Shown piece after piece: positions 3,462 through 36,264 of a DNA stretch of 38,724 bases. This stretch comes from a virus, in the IMG/VR virus record IMGVR_UViG_3300027980_000019, one strand, 5' to 3'. Positions within the stretch are counted from its first letter, which is position 1, and each line of letters begins with the position of its first letter. The notes beneath the pieces are model-generated. The model was not told the DNA's origin, made no database searches, and worked only from the letters and a program-made list of their open reading frames with translations. The translations under genes and the position numbers were made by a program.

Positions 3462-4163
3462 ATGAACGAAGTAACAACAGTTTCTCCGCAGGCATTGATG
3501 GAAAAAGCAATGCAGTCTGATGACATAGCGGTATTAGAACGAATCATTGACTTAAACGAGCGCATTGTAAGCCGTAACGCACAGTCTGAGTTTGTCGCGG
3601 CATTATCTCGTTTTCAGCGTGACTGCCCAGAAGTCAAAGCCCTAAAGCAAGGGCATAACTACAAGTACGCGCCGCTGCAAGACATTATTGCGCAGGTTAA
3701 GGCGCTGCTAGTCGAGTGCGGCCTGTCTTATCGTTTTGAGCAAAGCCAGGACGATAAGGAAATCACTGTAACCTGTTTGGTTACACATCTTTCAGGTCAC
3801 TCTGAAGCTACTACGGTTTCAGCAATGCCAGACACCGCAGGTAGTAAAAACAGCGTTCAGGCTATTGGCTCGACGATTACTTACTTACGCCGGTATTCAT
3901 TTACGGGCGCACTAGGTATTGTCACTGCCGATGTTGATTCCGATGCTCGCTTAGCTGGCCAGGCGACACAGGAATTTACCGACGCTCAGATGGTAATGGA
4001 CATCGAAGCATTGATTGAAGACACCGGATCAGACCGTGAGAAAGTATTGCAATGGGTGAGTACTTCGGTAGGTGCTGAAATAACGGCATTCAACCAGCTA
4101 TACAAGAAAGACGGCCAGAAGGTTATCAAACGTCTGAAAGATAAGGCGGCCAAGAATGTTTGA
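3462..4163 (+). CDS. erf: ERF-family single-strand annealing recombinase
   Basis: HNYKYAPLQDIIAQVKALLVECGLSY...THLSGHSE...QAIGSTITYLRRYSFTGALGIV..D.DSD matches the ERF superfamily core pattern. The 14-nt RBS/start block is the same as at gene 2565. Confidence 0.85.
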   Translation: MNEVTTVSPQALMEKAMQSDDIAVLERIIDLNERIVSRNAQSEFVAALSRFQRDCPEVKALKQGHNYKYAPLQDIIAQVKALLVECGLSYRFEQSQDDKEITVTCLVTHLSGHSEATTVSAMPDTAGSKNSVQAIGSTITYLRRYSFTGALGIVTADVDSDARLAGQATQEFTDAQMVMDIEALIEDTGSDREKVLQWVSTSVGAEITAFNQLYKKDGQKVIKRLKDKAAKNV

Positions 4164-4833: not shown

Positions 4834-5320
4834 AAGTATCAACAAAGTGACACTCATCGGAACGCTTGGCCGTGACCCCGAATTGCAGTACATGCCGAAC
4901 GGTAACGCCGTATCAAATATCTCTATCGCTACAGATGAGAGCTACAACGATAAGCAAACAGGCCAGAAGGTAGAACAGACCGAATGGCACCGGCTGACCG
5001 TATACGGGAAACTGGCTGAAATTTGCAATCAGTACCTGAGAAAGGGTTCGCGTGCCTACTTTGAAGGTAAACTGAAAACCCGCGAATGGGAGAAAGACGG
5101 CATTAAGCGATACACCACTGAGATTATAGTCAATGAAATGATGATGCTGGACTCAAAACAGGAAACCCAGCAACCACCGCAGGCACCGCAAGGATATGCG
5201 CAGCCTCAGCCACAGCACCCGCAACAACCGCCAATGCAGCAAGGCGGATACAATCAGCAGCAGCCGCGACCACCTCAACCGCAGCAAGGTGGTTTCCCTG
5301 GCGGCGATGTGCCGTTCTGA
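4826..5320 (+). CDS. ssb: Single-stranded DNA-binding protein
   Basis: N-terminal OB fold ([36 protein letters not shown]...TEWHRL), a Q/P-rich linker and an acidic-aromatic tail ending GGDVPF. Confidence 0.93.
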
Positions 5321-7690: not shown

Positions 7691-8127
7691 AACTCAACAT
7701 GATAAAGCAGCCGGGTGGCGTACTATATTCGGCTGATGATATAGCCGCTGAGTACCTGACAAAGCTGAAGACCGGCGAGGTCTACCCGGTAGAGATTAAG
7801 CGCAGTCGCAACCCGCAATTTCACAGCAAGGTGTTTGCATTCTTTCAGTTTGCGTTCAGCTACTGGCGCGGAGAGTGCGAGTTTCAGGAAGAAGCGGCGC
7901 AGTTTGATTCGTTTAGGAAGCAGCTAACAGTACAGGCCGGATACTATAACCAGGTTTGGACGCTGGATGGGCTAGGGTTTACGCTTGAGGCTAAATCACT
8001 AAGCTTCGGAAATATGGATCAAGCCGAGTTCGAGGAGTTCTCTGTGGCAATGCAGAACGCAGCTATGAGGACTATTTTTCAAGGCGCTGATGATAGTGTG
8101 ATTCAGGAGCTTATGGGCTTCTTTTGA
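7687..8127 (+). CDS. DUF1367-like nin-region protein
   Basis: IKQPGGVLYSADD...GEVYPVEIKRSRNPQFHSKVFAFFQFAFSYW resembles the DUF1367 N-terminal pattern (RN..FH.K.FA). The GTG start overlaps the upstream stop; the ATG at 7699 is an alternative. Confidence 0.5.
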   Translation: MKLNMIKQPGGVLYSADDIAAEYLTKLKTGEVYPVEIKRSRNPQFHSKVFAFFQFAFSYWRGECEFQEEAAQFDSFRKQLTVQAGYYNQVWTLDGLGFTLEAKSLSFGNMDQAEFEEFSVAMQNAAMRTIFQGADDSVIQELMGFF

Positions 8128-8138
8128 GATAGGGGTGA

Positions 8139-8351
8139 ATGATGAGCAAGCGTAGAAAGTTCTGAGAGCTAGTCGTCGTCGATGGTGATGTTCGGGCTGT
8201 TATTGTCAGGCTGAACCCTGACGTCGAGGGTGCAGATAAGCGCCCATGTTTTGCTTGTGATGATTGCGACTGCGAGGAGTTCGATAACTTAATGACTGAA
8301 AACAGTGATTTTATTTATCACATCAGTGAATGCAGGATGAGCGATGAATGA
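8139..8351 (+). pseudogene. Interrupted ORF with an in-frame TGA after 8 codons (recoding candidate or fresh nonsense mutation)
   Basis: AGGGG RBS, then ATGATG AGC AAG CGT AGA AAG TTC TGA(8163-8165), then 61 open codons (..DGDVRAVIVRLNPDVEGADKRPCFACDDCDCEEFDNL..). The final TGA overlaps the next gene's start as ATGA. Confidence 0.4.
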
Positions 8352-8542
8352 CAACAACACTACAGAAAGAGCGGCTGTTTGAGATTGCAAAGTACACACA
8401 GGCGCCAACACGTACACGCAAAGGCTTTAACGCAGACTGGCATAAAGCGATGGTAAAGCAGCTCATTGCGCTAGACCTAGTGACAGTTAAGTTTGGCAGT
8501 GTGGTACTGACTGATAAAGGGTGGCAGGAAATTGGCGAATAG
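8348..8542 (+). CDS. Hypothetical small protein (possibly winged-helix-like)
   Basis: 64-aa ORF with an ATGA overlap to the upstream frame. Confidence 0.5.
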   Translation: MTTTLQKERLFEIAKYTQAPTRTRKGFNADWHKAMVKQLIALDLVTVKFGSVVLTDKGWQEIGE

Positions 8543-9125
8543 CAAAAAGCGATGTAAGCACTGTAAAGGCTATTTTGACGCTGAATCAATGGTTGTGGTT
8601 CCCGCTGGAACCTTCTGTACAGCCGAACACGCTACGGAATGGGTAAAGACGGCTAATGGCAAGGCTAACGGCGAAAAGGTCAGGAAAGCGGCACACAGAG
8701 AGCAGTTAAAGAAGGTTAGACGGAACCCGCGAGCCGAGGCGCTGGTGATTGCTCAGGAGTTGGCCAGGATCTCACGCGCTGATGACAATGGCTTTTGCAC
8801 CTGCGTGACCTGCGGCCATGTTGGTCGCTGGAATGACGGCTTCGATGGTGGGCACTATATAGCGAAGGGCAGTAGCTCGTATTGGATGTTAGACCCGCGC
8901 AACATCTGGCCGCAGTGTAAGCCCTGTAACGGCAACGGGATGAAGTTTGATGGCAGGGAGTCGCTCTATACTCTTTTTATGATCAGAGAGTTTGGGGAAG
9001 AGTTTGTGAAGCACATGCAGGACGTTAAGAAAACAACGATTAAGCGAACCGCTCAGGACTATGATGATTTCATCAAATCGGCAAAGGCTGAAGTTGCTAA
9101 ACACAGAAAGCGAATTGGCGCATAG
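8532..9125 (+). CDS. ninG: NinG-family recombination protein
   Basis: N-terminal CKHCKGYF...FCTAEH, then CTCVTCGHVG...GGHY...QCKPCNGNG...Y...FGEEFV, matching the lambda NinG layout. The TTG start is needed to keep the N-terminal Cys pair. Confidence 0.8.
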   Translation: MANSKKRCKHCKGYFDAESMVVVPAGTFCTAEHATEWVKTANGKANGEKVRKAAHREQLKKVRRNPRAEALVIAQELARISRADDNGFCTCVTCGHVGRWNDGFDGGHYIAKGSSSYWMLDPRNIWPQCKPCNGNGMKFDGRESLYTLFMIREFGEEFVKHMQDVKKTTIKRTAQDYDDFIKSAKAEVAKHRKRIGA

Positions 9126-9158
9126 TGTCCTACACAAACAAAACTGATGCGGTATAGT
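9115..9158 (+). promoter_or_regulatory. Class-I promoter-like motif, copy d (TTGGCGC-N3-GTGTCCTAC-N19-TATAGT)
   Basis: Best-matching copy. Overlaps the ninG stop and faces the ORF-poor structured region. Confidence 0.6.
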
Positions 9159-9164
9159 TAAGAC

Positions 9165-9387
9165 ATGAAGTGAGCGGAAGGCTACTCCAGCGACAACTTC
9201 ATACCGACCCGTCGCGGCGTAGTTTACGGCGGGGACTTTATGCCGGTTCCTGCTGCGGACAAAAGCAGGGCGCATTGATAGAGGTATGCTACCGCGCTGG
9301 ACGTGGACCTTGGTTGCGGGTAGGTCAAGCAACCTGCCTCTTTCAATGCGCACCACCTGACGGCCCTGTCGTCGTGTTAGGTTTTTT
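9165..9387 (+). ncRNA. Candidate ~225-nt structured RNA or terminated leader
   Basis: Lies between promoter d and an intrinsic terminator. Helices: 9270-9284/9337-9351 (14 of 15 bp), hairpins 9249-9253/9265-9269 and 9312-9317/9329-9334. The only ORFs here are Arg-rich, RBS-less and overlap on both strands. Confidence 0.5.
9355..9387 (+). terminator. Rho-independent terminator
   Basis: About 8-10 bp stem (acctgacg...cgtgttaggt, including G-U pairs) followed by TTTTTT at 9382-9387. Confidence 0.65.
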
Positions 9388-9435
9388 ACTTACTTACTTT
9401 TAACACGGTGCGCATTTTTAATTTAAGGGGGATTT

Positions 9436-9684
9436 ATGAAAACATTTATAGTAAACATGCCAGTATCAGCGAATCTTTGTGCTCAGATAGAAGCTGAGAC
9501 GGAAGAGGAAGCGATTAAGAAAATGACACAGTTAGATGTGCGTCTTGATGTCATTCCATATAACGACGACGACACTGAGGCGAAAAGCGCAGAGATTGAA
9601 GATTGGGAGATGTTTCCGGAAGGAGTCAGTCAAGGCAATATCGATTATTCTGTACTTCGTGAGGCTGAAGCTTACGAGATTTGA
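9436..9684 (+). CDS. Very acidic hypothetical protein (82 aa)
   Basis: AAGGGGGA RBS. High D/E content (EAETEEEA, NDDDTEAKSAEIEDWE). Confidence 0.6.
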   Translation: MKTFIVNMPVSANLCAQIEAETEEEAIKKMTQLDVRLDVIPYNDDDTEAKSAEIEDWEMFPEGVSQGNIDYSVLREAEAYEI

Positions 9685-9859
9685 AGATCACCCACCGAAA
9701 GGAGGTGATGACTAAGCGCAGTTAGTCGAGCGCATTGCCTAAGCCGCTGGGAAGCGTGATAGGGCTCTAATACCACGCTTAGGGTGGGTGTAGCGACCGT
9801 CCCAATGAGTGAAACGAACGACTAGAGCTACTTGCTATCGTGATTTTGAGGATATTGAA

Positions 9860-10102
9860 ATGAGAGACTTTATTGATTTTTTCTTGCCTGTGATTCTTTT
9901 AATAGTTGTTGTAATCGCGGGCGCTTTATTCGGGGAGAATTACTATGAAGAATATACATGCGGGAAATACGCAGACGTGACCGGGCGGGAAACTAAGTGG
10001 GTATTCATGCACGACTGCTACATCAACACTGGCGGCGACTGGCTGACGAAGGATGAGTATGTTGTTGTACTGGTTGCACGCGAAGGACTGCAATCACGCT
10101 AA
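9860..10102 (+). CDS. N-terminally membrane-anchored small protein
   Basis: Frame of ORF 9809..10102. ATG 9860 has a GAGGA RBS 7 nt upstream. TM segment FFLPVILLIVVVIAGALF. Confidence 0.55.
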   Translation: MRDFIDFFLPVILLIVVVIAGALFGENYYEEYTCGKYADVTGRETKWVFMHDCYINTGGDWLTKDEYVVVLVAREGLQSR

Positions 10103-10167
10103 CGCCGCACACACGCAGCCGAGGAACGAGGTCTCGTGCTGGCGTGTGTTATTAGATGACGCTACAG

Positions 10168-10198
10168 TTGACCGTTGTGGCGCGAATTGTCATAATAT
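10168..10198 (+). promoter_or_regulatory. Class-II (late-type) promoter: TTGACC-N17-CATAAT/TAATAT with spacer 13-mer GTGGCGCGAATTG
   Basis: Sigma70-like hexamers read directly. The 13-mer at 10177-10189 is identical to 12168-12180. Confidence 0.6.
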
Positions 10199-10202
10199 CC
10201 AG

Positions 10203-10700
10203 GCACTTTGGCGGGTGCGAGTAGTTATAAGGTAGTCTCTGGCGTAGTTTAAAATCTCCCGCCAGAGTGTGCCGGGGATTACACTTATAGCTATTCGTTC
10301 CTTCCAGTGCCTTGGGTATCGGGCAAAACCAACGGGCACCAAGTCAAAACGCTGAGGCGCAGTACCAGAAGCCAACGCTCCAGAGTGTAAATCCGAAAGG
10401 AAGCATTCATACGGCATTAGTAGCCAGCCCTAACGGGTTCTAAGCCGTGTACAAGATGGGGAGTGGACAGACCTTAACCAGTAGTGGTCTGGGCATAAGC
10501 AGGTGGTAAGGTGGCTTTCCTGATTCGTCAGGCTGAGATAGGTTCCGGCAAGAACAGAAACTGTATCCTGATAAGTTTGGCTTTCTGGACTAACTGGCAA
10601 TGACTTGGTGTAAATGGGATGGCGTTCTAAGTATAGGCCACCAACCCCATCTAATGACCCTTATTGCCTAAATTCCAGACAGTGGTAACATAGGGAAAAC
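10203..10700 (+). ncRNA. Candidate ~500-nt structured non-coding RNA or long leader of the late operon
   Basis: No credible ORF in about 600 bp. 13-bp helix 10203-10215/10258-10270, UUCG hairpin 10519-10532, GAAA hairpin 10392-10401, 11-bp helix 10409-10420/10440-10450 with a nested hairpin, and long-range 8-bp helix 10454-10461/10645-10652. Confidence 0.45.
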
Positions 10701-10714
10701 ACAGGAGTTTGGGC

Positions 10715-10933
10715 ATGAGCTATCGAGACAAGAAAGTAAGCGAAGCGTCACCGGAAGAGCTGTTGAAGGCTCTGATTGAGTGTTCTGGTGGTGTTGAGCA
10801 AGGGCCGGTAAAAGTCACCTACGCTAATACTGTTCGCGAGTGCCTTGTCGGTATTGGCGATGATGAGACAGCATCGGTATTCATTCATACCGAAGGTCTC
10901 GAAGAGCTTGATAAGATTGTTGCCGAGGGCTAA
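10715..10933 (+). CDS. Hypothetical protein
   Basis: ATG 10715 preceded by an ACAGGAG RBS. 72 aa. Confidence 0.55.
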   Translation: MSYRDKKVSEASPEELLKALIECSGGVEQGPVKVTYANTVRECLVGIGDDETASVFIHTEGLEELDKIVAEG

Positions 10934-10935
10934 GC

Positions 10936-11169
10936 ATGATTAAGTTCATACTGAAAGAGCTGTTACTTGATATTGTGATTCCGGTTGTCTTTAGGCTGGC
11001 GCGTAAAGCACTGGACGACGTGGAAGAAACCGCAATCCGCAAGGTTGGCCAGAACGTCCCTCTGGATGCCAATGACCTTGAGTCGGTACAAAGCAACGTA
11101 AAGCAGGCAAAAGACGCACTTGAGGCCGTACAGGGGCTTAAAGAGCGATTCAAGAAGGTGGAACGATGA
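10936..11169 (+). CDS. Hypothetical protein with a hydrophobic N-terminus and coiled-coil tail
   Basis: 77-aa ORF 3 nt after the previous stop. N-terminus MIKFILKELLLDIVIPVVF. Confidence 0.55.
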   Translation: MIKFILKELLLDIVIPVVFRLARKALDDVEETAIRKVGQNVPLDANDLESVQSNVKQAKDALEAVQGLKERFKKVER

Positions 11170-11279
11170 ACAACAAAGCGAAAGCAACAAGTTACAAGCC
11201 GAAGAAGCCGAAGAAGAAAGCCAAAAAGGTCGCGGGCGGTTTTGACTACAACATCACAAAGCGTCGGAAGGCATCATGA
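11166..11279 (+). CDS. Unlisted 37-aa highly basic peptide
   Basis: My own translation: MNNKAKATSYKPKKPKKKAKKVAGGFDYNITKRRKAS. ATGA overlaps at both ends indicate coupling. Confidence 0.45.
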   Translation: MNNKAKATSYKPKKPKKKAKKVAGGFDYNITKRRKAS

Positions 11280-11725
11280 TTTTGTTTTTTGCAGTAGTTG
11301 CTCTGGTTATATTTATATTCACCGCTAAGCGACTTGCTCTCGTGTCCTTTATAGCGTTTTTCATTGCGCAGTTTATATCAACTCGAAGTGTAGTGACGTT
11401 CAGCTATGAGGCTGCTGTAATCAGTATGATGATTCTGAACTTTTCAGTATTTTCGATTGCTGTGGCTGAGTATCGCAAGCACCATACAGACCTTTCACGC
11501 TATCTTATGTGGCTCTACCTTGGTTTTCTCGCCGTCACAGGCTCTTATGCCTTTGCCACCACCGCCACTCAGGGCTATATTTTGGTCGGAATGTCTATTG
11601 TGGAATTGATTCTGCTAGTGTCTATGGATGGGTGCCGAAGTGTCTGGACTGATTTTAGACTCACTGCTGATACTATTCGTAACGGGAGTTATCGTCAGCG
11701 CCGTCATACACACCGCGAAGGCTGA
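11276..11725 (+). CDS. Polytopic membrane protein (about 4 TM; holin-like candidate)
   Basis: Four hydrophobic stretches and a basic C-terminus. Sits just before the terminase genes, where lambdoid lysis genes are found. Confidence 0.55.
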   Translation: MILFFAVVALVIFIFTAKRLALVSFIAFFIAQFISTRSVVTFSYEAAVISMMILNFSVFSIAVAEYRKHHTDLSRYLMWLYLGFLAVTGSYAFATTATQGYILVGMSIVELILLVSMDGCRSVWTDFRLTADTIRNGSYRQRRHTHREG

Positions 11726-11730
11726 GTGTA

Positions 11731-11955
11731 ATGGACGAAAGGTACCAAACGGCAAACGCAATGATTGTTCTCGGAATGGTCGGGACATGGATAATTGACA
11801 ATCCGACTGAGTTCGTCACGATGGCAGTGGCGATTGGCGGTTTCGTTATTATGCTGGCGAAGTACCTGGAGGAAAGGGTTCAGCGTAATGAGAGGCACAA
11901 TCTCGAAGTCAAGAAGACTAGGCTGGAGATAGAGAAATTGAAGAATCAGGACTAA
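11731..11955 (+). CDS. Two-TM small membrane protein with a charged C-terminal tail (holin-like candidate)
   Basis: 74 aa. TM segments AMIVLGMVGTWII and FVTMAVAIGGFVIML, then a K/E/R-rich tail. Confidence 0.5.
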   Translation: MDERYQTANAMIVLGMVGTWIIDNPTEFVTMAVAIGGFVIMLAKYLEERVQRNERHNLEVKKTRLEIEKLKNQD

Positions 11956-11979
11956 TCCTGGTTCATAGAGGCAACACGG

Positions 11980-12029
11980 CCTGCCCCTCTTGCCCTACAT
12001 GGTTGTAGGATGCTACGGGCGGGTTTTTT
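11980..12029 (+). terminator. Compound rho-independent terminator
   Basis: Outer stem cctgccc/gggcggg (one G-U pair) enclosing the cctaca/tgtagg hairpin, followed by TTTTTT at 12024-12029. Confidence 0.7.
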
Positions 12030-12085
12030 ATTGCTCACCTACCATTGTGCAGGCAGAGGTGGCCGTATCGCCCGGTCTACAATAG

Positions 12086-12159
12086 GCGACCATACCAAGT
12101 ATGAAAAAACCCCTGTCTGACCGGTGAGTGATAGCACATAGCGCGCCATACCAAGATAT
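12086..12159 (+). repeat. Two direct repeats GCG(A/C)CCATACCAAG(T/A)TAT upstream of terS
   Basis: Core CCATACCAAG at 12090-12099 and 12146-12155, 56 bp apart. Confidence 0.6.
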
Positions 12160-12160
12160 A

Positions 12161-12189
12161 TTCAAACGTGGCGCGAATTGGTGTATATT
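12161..12189 (+). promoter_or_regulatory. Class-II (late-type) promoter: TTCAAA-N17-TATATT with spacer 13-mer GTGGCGCGAATTG
   Basis: Hexamers read directly. The 13-mer at 12168-12180 is identical to that in the 10168 promoter. Confidence 0.55.
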
Positions 12190-12219
12190 TAAGTAAGTTG
12201 TGGCTGATTTGTGGTTAAT

Positions 12220-12690
12220 ATGGCAGGTAATGACGGAAAGATAACCAAAGAGAACCGGGATCGAATGCCTGGTCGCGGTCGTAGTAATAAGTCTCTGATA
12301 CTTGAGGCTTTGCGCAGGGAGTCGTTTGAGGATCTTACGGAGAACTCAAGCAACGAGGAATCAACCGTTGCTTTCTTTCGGCACATAATCCGACGCGCTC
12401 GCTCTGGTGAGGCTGATAAAGATTCTGGCATGTTGCTTAAGTGGCTGGGTGACAAAGGCTGGGCAAGTCTAAAGCCTGTTATGGGTGCGGTAGAGTTTGA
12501 ATTCGATGCCCATGCCACTGAGTCGGAGCAGGCAAAGCAGATACTCAAGGCGGCCAGCGAGGGCCATATCACTCCTGATGTTGCGCAGATGTTTGTCAAT
12601 ATGATGACGGGCATGCTCAAGATTGAAGAGGTGACAGAGATTAAAGAGCGCCTAGATCGAATAGAGCAGATGATCGAAAACAATGGCTGA
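12220..12690 (+). CDS. terS: Putative terminase small subunit
   Basis: About 156 aa, in the position upstream of terL, with a basic N-terminus. The call is positional. GTG 12211 is an alternative start. Confidence 0.5.
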   Translation: MAGNDGKITKENRDRMPGRGRSNKSLILEALRRESFEDLTENSSNEESTVAFFRHIIRRARSGEADKDSGMLLKWLGDKGWASLKPVMGAVEFEFDAHATESEQAKQILKAASEGHITPDVAQMFVNMMTGMLKIEEVTEIKERLDRIEQMIENNG

Positions 12691-12727
12691 TAATGTCCTA
12701 GCTTGATTTTTGGGCGCTGGATAGAAT
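12683..12727 (+). promoter_or_regulatory. Class-I promoter-like motif, copy g (degenerate: ATGGCTG-N3-ATGTCCTAG-N20-TAGAAT)
   Basis: The downstream half matches well and the upstream half is weak. Confidence 0.35.
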
Positions 12728-12752
12728 TAAAGCTCACATAAAGGGGGTTGGC

Positions 12753-12947
12753 ATGGTAATACTTTGGCCGATGTACGGTGAGGCAGCAATGGCTGATTCT
12801 ATTACTGTTATTGAATCTTGCGGTTATTTCATAACTCGAATCCGGAGGCGTCCGTTGGATGGTTATGAAAGAATAGAGGTTACGCGAAAGAAGTTTGGAC
12901 GCGTAAAGAGTCTGCCTGATTTCTGTGAGGTTTTACAAGTTGCTTAA
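12753..12947 (+). CDS. Hypothetical 64-aa protein between terS and terL
   Basis: Strong AAGGGGG RBS before the ATG. Overlaps the annotated terL start. Confidence 0.45.
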   Translation: MVILWPMYGEAAMADSITVIESCGYFITRIRRRPLDGYERIEVTRKKFGRVKSLPDFCEVLQVA

Positions 12948-14418
12948 GCGTAGGCTGGATGATCTTGAGCTTAAGGTGTCGGCTATTTCTGGAGATTTAG
13001 GGCTTGGCGACCAATGGAAGGTTGATTGCCGCAATAACTTGATGGCCTTTACTGAGGTTATGTTCAAGGCGAGGAAGGGCGTCGATATGCGCCACAACTG
13101 GCACCAGCAAAAAATGGTTGATGCGCTTCATAAGGTAGTGAACGGTGAAACGTCCAGGCTTATAATCAATATCCCGCCCCGCTCAGGTAAGACAGAGCTG
13201 GCTGTCATTAACTTTATGGCATGGTGTATGGGTAGGTATCCAGACTCTGAGTTTATACATGCCTCATACTCTAAGCGCCTTGCAACTACAAACACATTTA
13301 GCACTAGGGCTGTGGTTGAGCATGAGAAGTTTGCAGAGATATTCGGCCCGCCTAAGCTTCGTAACGACTCAAACGCCAAGGATGAATGGAGGACAATCCA
13401 GGGCGGTATTGTTTACGCAACTGGTGCTGACGGAACCATTACGGGCTACGGCGCTGGAAAGATGCGCGAAGGGTTCGCTGGTGCAATTGTTATTGATGAC
13501 CCGCATAAGGCTGGTGAGGCCAATTCGGATACGATGCGGTCTAATGTTATAGATTGGTTCCAAACGACAATGGAAAGCCGGAAGAACCGGCCTGATACCC
13601 CTATTATTGTGATCATGCAGCGACTCCATGAGAATGACCTGTCCGGCTGGTTGTTGGCTGGCGGTAATGGTGAAGAGTGGGAGCATTTAAACATACCTGC
13701 TGAAGTCGATGGTGAGTCATTCTGGCCGGAGCAATTCCCGATTGAAGACCTAAAGAGAAAGGAACGCTCAAACTCTTATGTTTACGCCGGTCAGTACTTG
13801 CAGCGCCCTGCCCCTATTGGTGGCGGAATATTCAAGGAGGGGTGGTGGAATTATTACGAAATGCTGCCAAAGATTGACTATAGGATAATTACCGCTGATA
13901 CCGCACAGAAGACCAAGGAGCATAACGACTATTCTGTATTTCAGTGCTGGGGCGTTACCGAAAGCGGAGACGCTTACTTGATAGACATGATCAGGGGTAA
14001 ATGGGAGGCTCCAGAGCTGTTAGTGAATGCCCGTGCGTTCTGGGAGAAGCATTTTACAACACCGGGAATGGGTGCGCTCCGGTCAATGAATATTGAGGAC
14101 AAGGTAAGTGGTACTGGCTTGATTCAGACCTTGCAGCGAGAAGGGATAACAATTAAGGCGATTCAAAGGAATACAGACAAGATTACAAGGGCGCTTGACG
14201 TTGCCCCGGCTGTTGAATCTGGAAGGGTTTACCTACCTAAGCGTGCTAGCTATTTGTCAGACTTCATAAGGGAGCATTCTCAGTTCCCTAACTCAGCCCA
14301 TGACGACTGCGTAGACCCTGCCATTGACGCCGTGTATAATTTAGTGGTAAGCCCTCCGTATAAGGCTAAAGAGACGCCGGTAGATGAGGTCTATGTCAAT
14401 CCCGTGAACTATTGGTGA
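12925..14418 (+). CDS. terL: Terminase large subunit
   Basis: Walker A-like PPRSGKTE, Walker B GAIVIDDPHK, coupling motif IMQRLHENDL, C-terminal nuclease acidic motifs (IITADTA, NIEDKVSG, HDDCVDP). The GTG start is uncertain. Confidence 0.9.
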   Translation: MRFYKLLKRRLDDLELKVSAISGDLGLGDQWKVDCRNNLMAFTEVMFKARKGVDMRHNWHQQKMVDALHKVVNGETSRLIINIPPRSGKTELAVINFMAWCMGRYPDSEFIHASYSKRLATTNTFSTRAVVEHEKFAEIFGPPKLRNDSNAKDEWRTIQGGIVYATGADGTITGYGAGKMREGFAGAIVIDDPHKAGEANSDTMRSNVIDWFQTTMESRKNRPDTPIIVIMQRLHENDLSGWLLAGGNGEEWEHLNIPAEVDGESFWPEQFPIEDLKRKERSNSYVYAGQYLQRPAPIGGGIFKEGWWNYYEMLPKIDYRIITADTAQKTKEHNDYSVFQCWGVTESGDAYLIDMIRGKWEAPELLVNARAFWEKHFTTPGMGALRSMNIEDKVSGTGLIQTLQREGITIKAIQRNTDKITRALDVAPAVESGRVYLPKRASYLSDFIREHSQFPNSAHDDCVDPAIDAVYNLVVSPPYKAKETPVDEVYVNPVNYW

Positions 14419-32626: not shown

Positions 32627-33142
32627 TCATTTGATCAACTCCGGGTTTTGGTGAATGTGTTTCCATTTTCGACTGTTACAACTCCGACACATTGGCTGAA
32701 TATTGCTTATGTAGTCTGATCCGCCTTCTGATAATGGCATTATATGGTCTTTGGTTAGTGAAACATCTGATCGGCCGCACCCAACGCAACAATTGCCACA
32801 AAATTCCTTAAGCGCGTTCCACTCTTCTAACGTATGTGATCCTTCTGCTCCTCGTTCTCTTGCATATCGCCTTGCTTTTAAGTGTGCCATCCTTTCTGGG
32901 TTTTTAGCCTTCCATCTTCTATGGGATTCAGTTTGTGACACACCTCCTCGCCACGTATTTTGTTGTGATGGCTCCCATGATTTTCGATTTTCTGCATAAC
33001 AGGCCATTGAGCAAAAATGTCTCTTTTTTCTATCAAAGTGACTTTTTCTTTCACTGTTCAAAGTTCCGCAATTATCACATAGGTATGCAATCACAAACTG
33101 ACCCTTTCGAACCTCAGTTACTGAGCAAATTACTGTTTTCAT
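32627..33142 (-). CDS. HNH endonuclease
   Basis: CVGCGRSDVSLTKDHIMPLSEGGSDYISNIQPMCRSCNSRK. Start moved to the ATG at 33142 (MKTVICS) because the upstream part of the track ORF overlaps YopX. Confidence 0.8.
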   Translation of the reverse strand: MKTVICSVTEVRKGQFVIAYLCDNCGTLNSERKSHFDRKKRHFCSMACYAENRKSWEPSQQNTWRGGVSQTESHRRWKAKNPERMAHLKARRYARERGAEGSHTLEEWNALKEFCGNCCVGCGRSDVSLTKDHIMPLSEGGSDYISNIQPMCRSCNSRKWKHIHQNPELIK

Positions 33143-33530
33143 GAATATTTCCAATAACCTTAAAGTTAACGCAGTATTCAACGAGCCAGCATCCAAAGCA
33201 AATCCCACGCGGTGATATTGTGGCCTCACCCATTGTGCGCATTGCCGTCGGTCTGTTTTCTGCTGATACGACATTGAAGCTCAGAACATCCCCCTCGTAA
33301 ATCTCCGTGCCGTCACAGTCTTTCAGGCCGGTGTATTGACCCACCGTCTCAGGCTTAACATACTGCTTTCTGATTACGTTAAACCAGCCACCATTACCAA
33401 ATGCTGACTCAACTATCCAGGTCTTTGTATGGCAATGCTGCATGTGCTTGATGAATTTATCAGTAACAACTAAAGAGCCGGTTATCATTTCACCCTTTAT
33501 TGTCATACCGCGAAACTTAATGTCTCTCAT
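33114..33530 (-). CDS. YopX-family protein
   Basis: IKFRGM..., VGQYTGLKDCDGTEIYEGDVL and VIGNIHENSNLL are YopX hallmarks. Confidence 0.8.
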   Translation of the reverse strand: MRDIKFRGMTIKGEMITGSLVVTDKFIKHMQHCHTKTWIVESAFGNGGWFNVIRKQYVKPETVGQYTGLKDCDGTEIYEGDVLSFNVVSAENRPTAMRTMGEATISPRGICFGCWLVEYCVNFKVIGNIHENSNLLSN

Positions 33531-34959: not shown

Positions 34960-35117
34960 AAATCGCAATATACATGGAGGTTTGCTAAACTAGTCACATA
35001 GCAAGGCGTGGAACCCAAGCTATAAGTAAGACCGTGGTGATATTGATATGGGCGAAAGGTAGGGCGAATCACCCGCTCTGTTCCACCCGAGTAGCCCACC
35101 TAATCAATGGTGAATCT

Positions 35118-35765
35118 ATGTTACCTGTAAGCAATCCAGAAAGTCAGACAATGAGCAGTCGCGATATAGCCGCGCTTGTTGAATCCCGTCACTCTGATGT
35201 AATGCGAACTATTGAGCGCCTTATCTCAAACGAAACAATTTCAGGGTATGCGCCAACGGCGTACACCCATGAGCAGAACGGACAACAGTATCACGAGTAC
35301 CTGATAGGCAAGCGCGATAGCTATGTCGTTGTTGCTCAGCTCTCCCCGCAGTTTACCGCCAGACTTGTTGACCGCTGGCAAGAATTGGAAGAGCAGGCAG
35401 CCCCGCAAATACCGCAAACATACTCAGAGGCACTACAACTAGCAGCGGATCAGGCAAAGCTAATCGAAGAGCAGCGGCCAAAGGTTGAGTTTGTCGATAA
35501 GCTCGTGTCACGCGATACGCTAATGAATGCGACACAGGTTGCCCAGAAGCTAGGGTTAAGCGCTGTTAAACTCAACCGTATCCTGGATGAGCTGGGTGGC
35601 GTCTACTCGAAGTCAGTGAAGCGTTCCCGGACGTTCTGCCAGAGCTGGGTAGAAAAGGGTTATGGCGAACTAAAGCAAACGCAGGAAGGCTACCCGCAAG
35701 CCCTGTTCACGCCCGCTGGTGAGGTTCGCATCTTTGAGCTTCTAACCAGTGAAGGTATTATCTAA
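35118..35765 (+). CDS. Rha-family regulatory protein fused to a KilAC/antirepressor C-terminal domain
   Basis: N-terminal SSRDIAALVESRHSDVMRTIERL (Rha pattern). C-terminal ...LMNATQVAQKLGLSAVKLNRILDELG...LFTPAGEVRIFELL (KilAC-like). Confidence 0.75.
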   Translation: MLPVSNPESQTMSSRDIAALVESRHSDVMRTIERLISNETISGYAPTAYTHEQNGQQYHEYLIGKRDSYVVVAQLSPQFTARLVDRWQELEEQAAPQIPQTYSEALQLAADQAKLIEEQRPKVEFVDKLVSRDTLMNATQVAQKLGLSAVKLNRILDELGGVYSKSVKRSRTFCQSWVEKGYGELKQTQEGYPQALFTPAGEVRIFELLTSEGII

Positions 35766-35895: not shown

Positions 35896-36264
35896 ATGGC
35901 GAAGAAGAAAATCACGCCTAGAAACCGAACCATTGCGTTCATGAAAACCGACTTTTGTTGCTCTTATTGCGGAAGCAAGTTCAAAGATGACTTGTGGGAT
36001 GCATGCCTTGACCATGTTATCCCAGAGTCAAGAGGCGGCTCCAATAAGCATGAAAACCTAATTCCGGCTTGCAGGTCATGCAATGCATCGAAATCAACAA
36101 AGACACTAGACGAATACAGGCTTGTTTGCTGGGCTAGGAATGAGTTTCCTGATGCAAACTTGACGCTGAATCAGATTCAAACCCTTCTAAATCTTGGCGC
36201 CCTTGTGTGTCAGACAGAATATACGTCACACGCTTTCTATTTCGAGGGCAATCAAAATGATTAA
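35896..36264 (+). CDS. HNH endonuclease
   Basis: CSYCGSKF...DHVIPESRGGSNKHENLIPACRSCNASK. Confidence 0.85.
   Translation: MAKKKITPRNRTIAFMKTDFCCSYCGSKFKDDLWDACLDHVIPESRGGSNKHENLIPACRSCNASKSTKTLDEYRLVCWARNEFPDANLTLNQIQTLLNLGALVCQTEYTSHAFYFEGNQND

Follow-up and report, generated by a model that had tools for sequence, protein, structure and literature searches.

What occupies the gene-free gap at positions 10103-10714 of the virus record IMGVR_UViG_3300027980_000019 (IMG/VR)? The window, by which we mean the whole stretch of 38,724 nucleotides (nt) analyzed here, is a near-complete 38.7-kb genome of a P22-like/lambdoid podophage, transcribed almost wholly from the + strand. An earlier reading made from the letters of the DNA alone (hereafter the sequence-only reading) described the gap as free of open reading frames (ORFs) and interpreted it as a leader of the late transcript with switch-like pairings. 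Comparison with related phages points elsewhere: we consider it probable that the + strand at ~10202-10674 specifies a stand-alone structured non-coding RNA (ncRNA) of ~470 nt, which would represent a new family and be carried by P22-like phages as a mosaic accessory cassette. Its 5' end (10202) is placed from the promoter and its 3' end (10674) from the limit of family conservation.

Loci reached in this analysis are labelled L004, L009, L010, L016, L017, L020-L028 and L087-L093, and the homologues among them came from pattern scans of IMG/VR, made with the tail of the element and later with a two-block core pattern. Three are true homologues: L027 (5367-5827; full length, 88% identical, nhmmer E = 7e-90), L026 (about 1887-2472; nhmmer E = 5e-10 to 2e-11) and L093 (about 1378-1845; E = 3e-11 to 4e-14 against all three other members). 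With the window they form a predicted family, so far known from four related phages of marine type; it has at least four members, all on contigs of P22-like/lambdoid phages. The sequence-only reading had proposed collecting homologous regions from related phages; BLASTN of the gap region and of 25 kb of the window against 50,697 phage records yielded no DNA-level relative, and it was the IMG/VR pattern scans that supplied the three homologues. Base-for-base copies of the window phage occur in several JGI and ENA metagenome contigs and, being 100% identical, are uninformative for comparison. A metagenome scan with the 5' motif returned an L010-type phage (see below) and one chance match in a coding region, two genome-collection scans gave no further members, and IMG/VR scans with two core motifs gave 12 and 45 chance matches in coding regions in addition to the known true members. 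L016, L017, L020 and L092 were rejected as chance matches. L028 has the tail and some words that resemble the core, its upstream region being at most a candidate homologue.

No family of Rfam 15 accounts for the element. Its 4227 models, among them ROOL, GOLLD, group I and II introns, RNase P, tmRNA, 6S and riboswitches, produced no match to the whole window at gathering thresholds, and at E ≤ 10 over 9800-11000 there were chance-level hits only, the best being a plant microRNA model (23 bits versus a threshold of 54). At E ≤ 1 in L026, L027 and L093, the only hit reaching its gathering score was a tRNA in L027, and two weak sub-threshold hits in L093 both lie outside the RNA region. The sequence-only reading had recognized no RNA family here, and covariance-model searches of the window and its homologues agree.

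The evidence for a folded RNA comes from compensatory base changes, which are found in six predicted helices: the long 5' hairpin, the long-range helix P5, the GAAA hairpin (P6), and the hairpins at 10468-10491, 10519-10532 and 10542-10555. An RNAalifold consensus of the window and L027 has 118 pairs, all canonical in both sequences; 9 of these pairs are changed on both sides, versus 0-3 when the partners are slid by 1-3 columns. The four-sequence core was aligned by hand, each row being checked as contiguous real sequence, and changes were counted by script. It has 41 pairs with 95.7% of 161 cells canonical, and two-sided changes in 24 pairs, versus 1-6 in slid controls. Covariation of P9 and P11 is also visible on an unfitted MAFFT alignment (A6), while the MAFFT sub-alignments were not structure-consistent.

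The core of ~300 nt is organized by P5, which closes a multi-helix junction (P6, P7, P9, P10 and P11). In the window GAAGCCAA (10368-10375) pairs with UUGGCUUU (10577-10584), enclosing a + strand domain of ~210 nt (10368-10584). The corresponding strands in L027 are AUUGUUAC/GUAGCAAU, in which 6 of the 8 pairs are changed and all are retained (four by two-sided and two by one-sided changes), and the same anchored positions hold UUGAUCGC/GCGAUUGG in L026 and CUACGCAC/GUGCGUGG in L093; all eight pairs are canonical in each of the four members despite their differing sequences. In an exhaustive enumeration of helices between the window and L027, P5 ranked first by number of two-sided changes (4 over 8 bp), and the runner-up, a single 4-bp helix with three such changes, is probably a chance result.

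The hairpins within the junction vary in sequence while their positions are kept. P6 (10383-10408) has an outer stem (GAGUG/CAUUC) that covaries in all four members, becoming GACUG/CAGUC, GUUGG/CCAGC and GCCUA/UAGGC, and an inner stem (UCC/GGA) with a U-A to C-G change beneath an invariant GAAA tetraloop (10395-10398). P7 (10411-10448) is conserved in position and variable in both sequence and length, hairpins of unrelated sequence being found at this site in L027, L026 and L093 (read off the alignments, with pairs not counted). P9 (CAGACC/GGUCUG; 10468-10473 with 10486-10491) is replaced by CUGCCC/GGGCAG in L093 and CACC/GGUG in L026. P10 (CCUGA-UUCG-UCAGG; 10519-10523 with 10528-10532) gains a pair in L027 through an extra C in the 5' arm and an extra G in the 3' arm, and reads GCAUC/GAUGC in L093; its loop is not conserved. 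P11 (GUUC-CGGCAA-GAAC; 10542-10555) is CGUC/GACG in both L026 and L093, two two-sided changes, with the loop CGG(C/U)AA conserved.

A second long-range pairing joins AGAUGGGG (10454-10461) with CCCCAUCU (10645-10652), the latter being followed by the tail motif UAAUGACCNNUAUUGCCUAAAU (together 10645-10674). Eight pairs form in both the window and L027, and the helix is lengthened to 9-10 pairs in L026 and L093; in L093 (AGAGGGG/CCCCUCU) a U-A pair has been lost on both strands simultaneously. One strand lies inside P5 and the other outside, so that this pairing crosses P5 and makes a pseudoknot. The strands that join the helices, one of which enters this pseudoknot, are nearly invariant (GGCAUAARCAGG, the CGGYAA loop, AAACURUAUCCUGAUAAG and GUGGA). 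The junction GGCAUAAGCAGG (10492-10505) is invariant in the four members except for one R position, and AGAAACUGUAUCCUGAUAAGU (10556-10576) is nearly invariant in all of them. Several helices contain G-U pairs, which would be A-C mismatches on the opposite strand, and the folded strand is thus the + strand.

Every helix listed in the sequence-only reading (including 10307-10315/10329-10339) is present in the window, and several of those in the core are supported by the comparison. The GAAA-tetraloop hairpin (10392-10401) is upheld by its invariant loop and covarying stems, and the hairpin 10468-10473/10486-10491 by covariation in L093 and L026. The hairpin at 10519-10532 is kept through compensatory changes, although its UUCG loop is not, and a hairpin recurs at 10409-10420/10440-10450 without conservation of its sequence. 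The long-range helix 10454-10461/10645-10652, read earlier as closing a ~190-nt domain, survives in another role, as the helix that crosses P5.

These changes bear directly on whether the region acts as RNA at all. A DNA-level regulatory stretch, or genes decaying at a mosaic junction, might be expected to look like this region in some respects: it contains or adjoins two promoters and a TGGCG(G/T)GTG motif that is repeated, the position is a recombination hot spot, and the 3' half is thermodynamically ordinary. However, such an origin is highly improbable given two-sided changes in six helices, one of which spans 200 nt, with G-U pairs that are strand-specific; in addition, codon periodicity is absent and tblastn detected no remnants of neighbouring proteins or of the T5orf172 protein that is encoded at this position in other phages. 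A decayed T5orf172 gene was rejected on the latter ground, there being no trace of it in the window.

Protein coding can be given almost no weight. The gap has no credible ORF, only four that overlap it, two on the + strand (10053-10235, 60 amino acids [aa]; 10312-10443, 43 aa) and two on the minus strand (10190-10417, 75 aa; 10430-10600, 56 aa), and a gene caller annotated a 58-aa ORF at 10059-10235 in one contig. One or more small proteins, for example the 75-aa minus-strand product, could in principle be made from ORFs of 43-75 aa, but in L027, L026 and L093 stop codons interrupt each of them, as they do every other frame. Across all four members the six frames are closed, with 2-14 stops per frame, and substitutions between the window and L027 fall on the three codon phases as 35/27/35, showing no codon periodicity. 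Moreover, the ORFs overlap the promoter or run antisense within an otherwise one-directional gene block. A small protein from the gap was therefore rejected, and the earlier description of the gap as ORF-free holds, with no conserved small-protein ORF among the homologues. Neither tRNA nor tmRNA genes were predicted in the window.

The thermodynamic signal is carried by the 5' part of the element. The gap region as a whole folds with z = -4.4 on the + strand and z = -1.9 on the minus strand; most of this is due to a nearly continuous long hairpin at 10198-10318 (-62.8 kcal/mol, z = -8.9). The 200-nt segment starting at 10203 (z = -4.8; reverse complement, -0.3) is the lowest of 193 such segments across the genome, while the remaining ~400 nt (10313-10714) reach only z = -2.2 and the local segment 10403-10602 has z = +1.0. 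Unusually stable 5' domains occur in all members (z = -8.9, -5.9, -3.8 and -2.6).

The 5' domain begins with a motif, GCACUUUGGCGGGUG (10203-10217), common to the window, L027 and L010 and present in a weaker form in L093 and L026; the start motif of the family's 5' domain can be written CAGGCAC-UNUGGCGG. It provides the 5' arm of a 13-bp helix (10203-10215 with 10258-10270), which the sequence-only reading had found and which L027 preserves even though one pair has changed on both sides, from U-G to G-C, and another on one side only; L010 retains a shortened version of this hairpin. The long 5' hairpin (10219-10296; arms 10219-10244 and 10270-10296, a 26-pair stem, helix 3) takes seven substitutions in L027 with no pair broken (two two-sided and three one-sided changes). 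The two structures are sterically exclusive and neither touches an expression signal in the window; in L093 the start motif lies in a hairpin loop. The 5' domain has a shared start motif and a long, lineage-specific hairpin, the comparison being compatible with either fold. Other local features reported earlier are less durable: an 8-bp hairpin at 10237-10244/10260-10267 has one pair broken in L027, and of the three GTAGT(T/C) repeats, all present in the window, two are altered in L027 by changes that are compensated within the long hairpin.

Each copy of the RNA has a sigma70-type promoter upstream. In the window this is P1 (10168-10196, + strand; TTGACC, a 17-nt spacer and a TG-extended CATAAT), the best such site in 8000-13000, matching the consensus at 10/12 positions in addition to the TG extension. 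The promoter noticed in the sequence-only reading is therefore near-consensus, and it is retained in L027, where the same place has TTGATA-16-TATAAT (11/12) although the sequence differs. L010 has the counterpart TTGACC-17-GACAAT, and the start-proximal motif stands at a fixed distance from the -10 element in the window, L027 and L010. The promoters are directly adjacent and strong in the window and L027; those of L026 and L093 are weaker (9/12 each) and lie about 190-290 nt 5' of the conserved core. A second promoter-like site, P2 (10664-10691, + strand; TTGCCT, a 16-nt spacer and a TG-extended TAACAT), is found just 5' of the first late ORF, with 8/12 plus TG in the window, 9/12 plus TG in L027 (TTGCCT-16-TACAAT) and 9/12 in L093 (TTCTCA-16-TAAAAT); it is absent in L026. 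Since P2 lies between the RNA and the late genes, the latter need not depend on P1. As the sequence-only reading had it, no terminator precedes the first late ORF (10715): no + strand terminator-like site was found in 10103-10714, nor downstream of it in 10103-13000.

How the element relates to its neighbours is clearest from its genomic contexts. The genes of the window encode a replication initiator, DnaB helicase, Erf, YqaJ, SSB, dUTPase, NinB and NinG; downstream of NinB/NinG come the small and large terminase subunits, followed by P22-type portal, scaffold and coat proteins. In the window and L027 the RNA lies between the nin region (NinB, NinG) and these late/packaging genes. In L093, by contrast with that late position, it occupies a divergent region of ~700 nt, with a cro-like repressor gene and genes for replication following it, and in L026 it precedes small ORFs, among them one of 64 aa, and then a DNA helicase gene/operon. 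Searches anchored on the small terminase and on a 149-aa protein led to relatives without the RNA; the closest of them, L009 (~86% nucleotide identity in flanking genes), lacks the whole of window 9770-11166, a mosaic block that also contains the first downstream ORF (10715-10933, + strand, 72 aa). This 72-aa protein has no homologue except identical copies among 5.8 billion proteins, and a 97-aa ORF was not found in IMG/VR or phage records. From these contexts the predicted RNA is a mosaic accessory cassette in a variable slot and not a fixed leader of the late genes.

The slot has recognizable ends. Its left boundary is a separate element, a conserved intergenic hairpin block (TAACGCC...CUCGUGCUGGCGUGUGUUAUU; 10098-10153, + strand) of the form TAACGCC...CACGNG-loop-CNCGUGCUGGCGUGUGUUAUU, whose inner stem CACGNG/CNCGUG covaries and whose 3' arm is identical at 24/24 positions in L010. 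Further copies lie in L010 (373-418), L021-L025, L027 (5296-5342), L087 (4040-4083) and L089 (about 4080-4130). The block begins at the stop codon of the preceding gene. In the window and L027 it extends to the RNA's promoter, and elsewhere it stops a few bases 5' of the following ribosome-binding site; the L010 copy at 373-418 sits upstream of dnaB. It could serve in processing, as a weak terminator, or as a recognition hairpin for a protein or Nus-type factor.

The right boundary is the tail, TAATGACCNNTATTGYCTAAAT (10652-10674), which is conserved in L027, L026 and, more loosely, L093. It ends quite different cassettes, namely the RNA, the T5orf172 ORF and a 64-aa ORF, and copies were located in L026 (2450 and 2671), L010 (4245), L087 (4568), L091 (1179) and on the minus strand of L028 (3887-3867); those of L010, L087 and L091 close cassettes without the RNA. 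The TAA of the tail is often an ORF stop codon, its TTGCCT/TTCTCA doubles as a promoter -35 in three phages, and in L026 a ribosome-binding site follows it directly. The tail may mark where cassettes recombine, or may itself have a regulatory function.

Between these boundaries the contents differ from phage to phage, while the 149-aa and 74-aa late genes downstream are shared. The window and L027 have the RNA, L089/L090 a pair of small ORFs, and L009 other, small ORFs. In L010, L087 and L091 the slot contains an ORF of 146 aa with a T5orf172/MUG113 domain (L010 3798-4238, L087 4130-4570, L091 741-1181). Only three short blocks are shared between the window and L010, which is less closely related than L009: the hairpin block (10098-10153), the promoter with the first ~20 transcribed bases (ATCCAGGCACTTTGGCGGGTG), and a 23-nt block of the tail (CCCATCTAATGACCCTTATTGCC, 10646-10668). 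The T5orf172 ORF of L010 follows the RNA's promoter and 5' hairpin, and this hairpin covers the ORF's ribosome-binding site. It looks as if a nuclease-type gene has replaced the body of the RNA gene with both ends kept. L093 and L004, the latter being the window phage itself, both come from JGI sample 3300027790, so that one metagenome holds two RNA-carrying phages, which fits an exchange of cassettes within one community.

Conserved ends of this sort would also suit an RNA that processes itself or moves, be it a ribozyme or an intron-like/homing cassette, with the ends as its processing or insertion boundaries. Depending on the phage, it is the RNA or a T5orf172 (GIY-YIG-like) ORF that lies between the 5' motif and the tail, several cassettes end with the tail, and covarying stems with invariant junctions are typical of ribozymes. 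We nevertheless regard this origin as very improbable: the intron and small-ribozyme families of Rfam 15 gave no match at E ≤ 10 over the region, at E ≤ 1 nothing in Rfam 15 overlaps the RNA of L026, L027 or L093, exon halves do not flank the element, which is intergenic in four different contexts, and no target-site duplications were found. An 11-nt inverted match (10148-10158/10648-10658) is no better than chance pairs in the region, and a miniature inverted-repeat element was rejected.

The sequence-only reading had proposed a ~500-nt leader of the late mRNA, in which mutually exclusive, attenuator- or riboswitch-like pairings would tune the late genes. The first half of its interpretation stands, in that the gap appears to hold a structured RNA with its own promoter and no Rfam family. 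P1 transcripts would include the late genes, as no terminator precedes the first late ORF; the 13-bp helix and the long hairpin, both well supported, exclude each other at the 5' end; and the 5' hairpin of L010 covers the ribosome-binding site of the next ORF. The switch itself is not supported. It was to consist of a second CCAGAGTGT copy (10380-10388) pairing alternatively with 10203-10211, but two of these pairs are broken in L027 because the change of 10385 from G to C is compensated inside the P6 stem, to which 10380-10388 is committed, and the core has beside it neither a terminator to control nor a sequestered ribosome-binding site. Nor does a constant target follow the RNA, the downstream genes being an orphan 72-aa ORF, a cro-like gene or a helicase operon. 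The closest relatives lack the RNA, two of the four copies lie ahead of early/replication genes, and P2 intervenes before the late genes. A tuned late leader is thus, in our judgement, improbable.

Several observations weigh against a stand-alone RNA. In all four members it is co-oriented with, and directly upstream of, an operon. Neither a terminator nor a defined 3' end was found, an outcome as compatible with a leader as with a separate RNA. The absence of a recognizable Q-type antiterminator among the window proteins scanned leaves room for a cis-acting role. The structural evidence has limits of its own: the hand alignment of the core was fitted to the proposed structure, and the statistical power of the covariation is low because there are only four members, two of which (the window and L027) are 88% identical. 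Single-sequence minimum-energy folds transferred to the homologue kept 18 of 52 changed pairs versus 15-25 in slid controls, so that only the helices named above are reliable. Finally, the folding energy of the core is unremarkable (z = -2.2 in the window), and in L026 the core with part of the 5' domain (2013-2470) has z = -0.6.

Such placement brings in the most serious rival: cis-acting processive antitermination like that of HK022 put, in which the nascent RNA would fold, bind the polymerase transcribing it and make the downstream operon resistant to termination, taking the place of Q or N. In the four phages the RNA stands between a promoter and a long co-oriented operon with no terminator between them, its start-proximal motif keeps a fixed distance from the -10 element (in the window, L027 and L010), and no Q-like protein was recognized in the window; put RNAs serve both early operons of a lambdoid phage with no protein factor (PMC9378689). 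The arrangement is less suggestive in other respects. Put RNAs have two stem-loops in ~70 nt, compared to at least eight helices in ~470 nt here; a second promoter separates the RNA from the genes in three of the four members; and no + strand terminator-like site was found downstream in 10103-13000. Close relatives without the RNA keep the same late genes and P2, which argues that late transcription does not depend on it. We consider a put-like action unlikely on balance.

As a stand-alone ncRNA, the element would have its near-consensus promoter (10168-10196) to itself and be transcribed there by the host's sigma70 RNA polymerase, probably from the first minutes of infection, and transcripts from P1 would probably continue into the downstream genes because there is no terminator. 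Covarying stems, near-invariant junctions, a GNRA loop and a pseudoknot are what one would expect of a compact tertiary fold that recognizes a partner, which might be a host or phage protein, RNA polymerase, or copies of the RNA itself. It would then act as a folded RNA or RNA-protein particle, and not as a switch on the downstream mRNA. Its patchy swapping in and out beside protein cassettes resembles that of accessory host-interaction genes, and favours a folded RNA acting on a host or phage factor. A more far-reaching version, which we offer tentatively, is an RNA-only machine of a new large pseudoknotted class: either a larger analogue of put that replaces Q or N, or an RNA that neutralizes or titrates a host factor (e.g., an immune sensor), possibly self-assembling as ROOL and GOLLD do. 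In either form, promoter and RNA would pass together, as one cassette, between marine P22-like phages.

In P22-like phages, these comparisons show the early/late junction to be a hot spot at which an RNA gene and protein genes interchange, which suggests an accessory role in host interaction. Should the RNA act on RNA polymerase, it would explain how such phages manage without a Q-type antiterminator. Few structured RNAs larger than 300 nt are known from bacteria and phages, and each class discovered to date has opened new biology; they include RNase P, group I and group II introns, OLE, GOLLD, ROOL and raiA. The present element is a compact and tractable candidate for this list, with clear boundaries, a host-type promoter, relatives that are natural knock-outs and natural replacement cassettes.

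Other parts of the genome deserve mention. The nearest cultured relatives of the window phage are seawater Vibrio phages (small terminase, 44% identity), and no Q antiterminator, CI repressor or integrase was recognized among the window proteins scanned. The genome does encode two HNH endonucleases (32627-33274, minus strand; 35896-36264) and an Ant/Rha-like protein (35034-35765). Between ninG and an 82-aa ORF there is a second gap of ~310 nt (9126-9435) in which no gene was called. Folding of its + strand gives z = -2.6 for the gap as a whole and -3.4 for 9203-9402, a terminator-like hairpin with a U-run lies at 9358-9374, and conservation with L009 stops at 9171. A gap of 255 nt (11956-12210) separates a 74-aa ORF from the small terminase gene, and at this position L009, L027, L088 and L089 have two or three small minus-strand genes. 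In the erf gene region (3603-3802) both strands fold unusually well (z = -3.5 and -3.2), which suggests an inverted repeat at the DNA level rather than an RNA structure. The stretch between the tRNA-Arg gene of L027 (discussed below) and its RNA contains no obvious gene at 4950-5117.

Among known systems, group I and II introns differ from the present RNA, whose neighbouring ORFs are each complete and unrelated to one another, whose position is intergenic in four different contexts, and which no intron model matches. Attenuators and riboswitches are set apart by the lack of any conserved switch pairing on a terminator or ribosome-binding site in the window, and of a single functional class of downstream gene. 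The lambda late leader (PR', the qut site, 6S RNA and tR') has the same map position as the RNA of the window and L027 and likewise starts at a strong constitutive promoter. However, there is no Q hit among the proteins scanned and no terminator that would end a short leader, and the present RNA is far larger, with a conserved structure and with other members in early regions.

The put RNAs of HK022 (putL and putR), comprising two stem-loops of ~70 nt in all (PMC9378689), resemble the present RNA in being promoter-proximal, co-oriented structured RNAs at the head of an operon, with no dedicated protein gene. The likeness in placement extends to all four members, at early (L093, L026) as well as late (window, L027) operons. 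The differences lie in the ~300-nt core (~470 nt in full, at least eight helices) with its multi-helix junction and pseudoknot, in its being dispensable in close relatives, and in the fact that no downstream terminators were identified; resistance to terminators through the beta' zinc-binding domain is a feature of put, and the comparison made here is one of placement.

A 2023 survey of IMG/VR reported thousands of candidate structured RNAs of 29-151 nt, the DNAVirus_N set (PMC10690425). It drew on the same data source, three members of the present family being IMG/VR contigs, and likewise concerns conserved intergenic phage RNAs. No multi-domain RNA of ~470 nt is described there, a comparison made by description; on that footing the present family appears to be previously undescribed, although pieces of it might be among the DNAVirus_N candidates.

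Nearest in kind are ROOL and GOLLD, large pseudoknotted RNAs of phages and prophages that often lie near tRNA genes and whose function is unknown (PMC12286853). Proximity to a tRNA gene is seen here in L027 alone, where a gene-poor stretch of ~930 nt contains tRNA-Arg (anticodon TCT; 4874-4950), and the RNA follows it at a distance of ~420 nt; the window, L026 and L093 have no tRNA genes. ROOL and GOLLD have been described mainly from prophages of Firmicutes and Actinobacteria, whereas the present RNA belongs to P22-like phages whose nearest cultured relatives infect Vibrio. It matches no Rfam model and is also smaller and simpler, with ~470 nt as compared to the 659 nt of ROOL env-120 and to GOLLD, which often exceeds 800 nt, and with one supported pseudoknot (P5 crossed) in place of the several found in that class of RNAs exceeding 600 nt. 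Self-assembly into RNA-only homo-oligomers is a feature of ROOL and GOLLD. What it has in common with them is that it is large, phage-encoded, protein-free-looking, pseudoknotted and sporadically carried.

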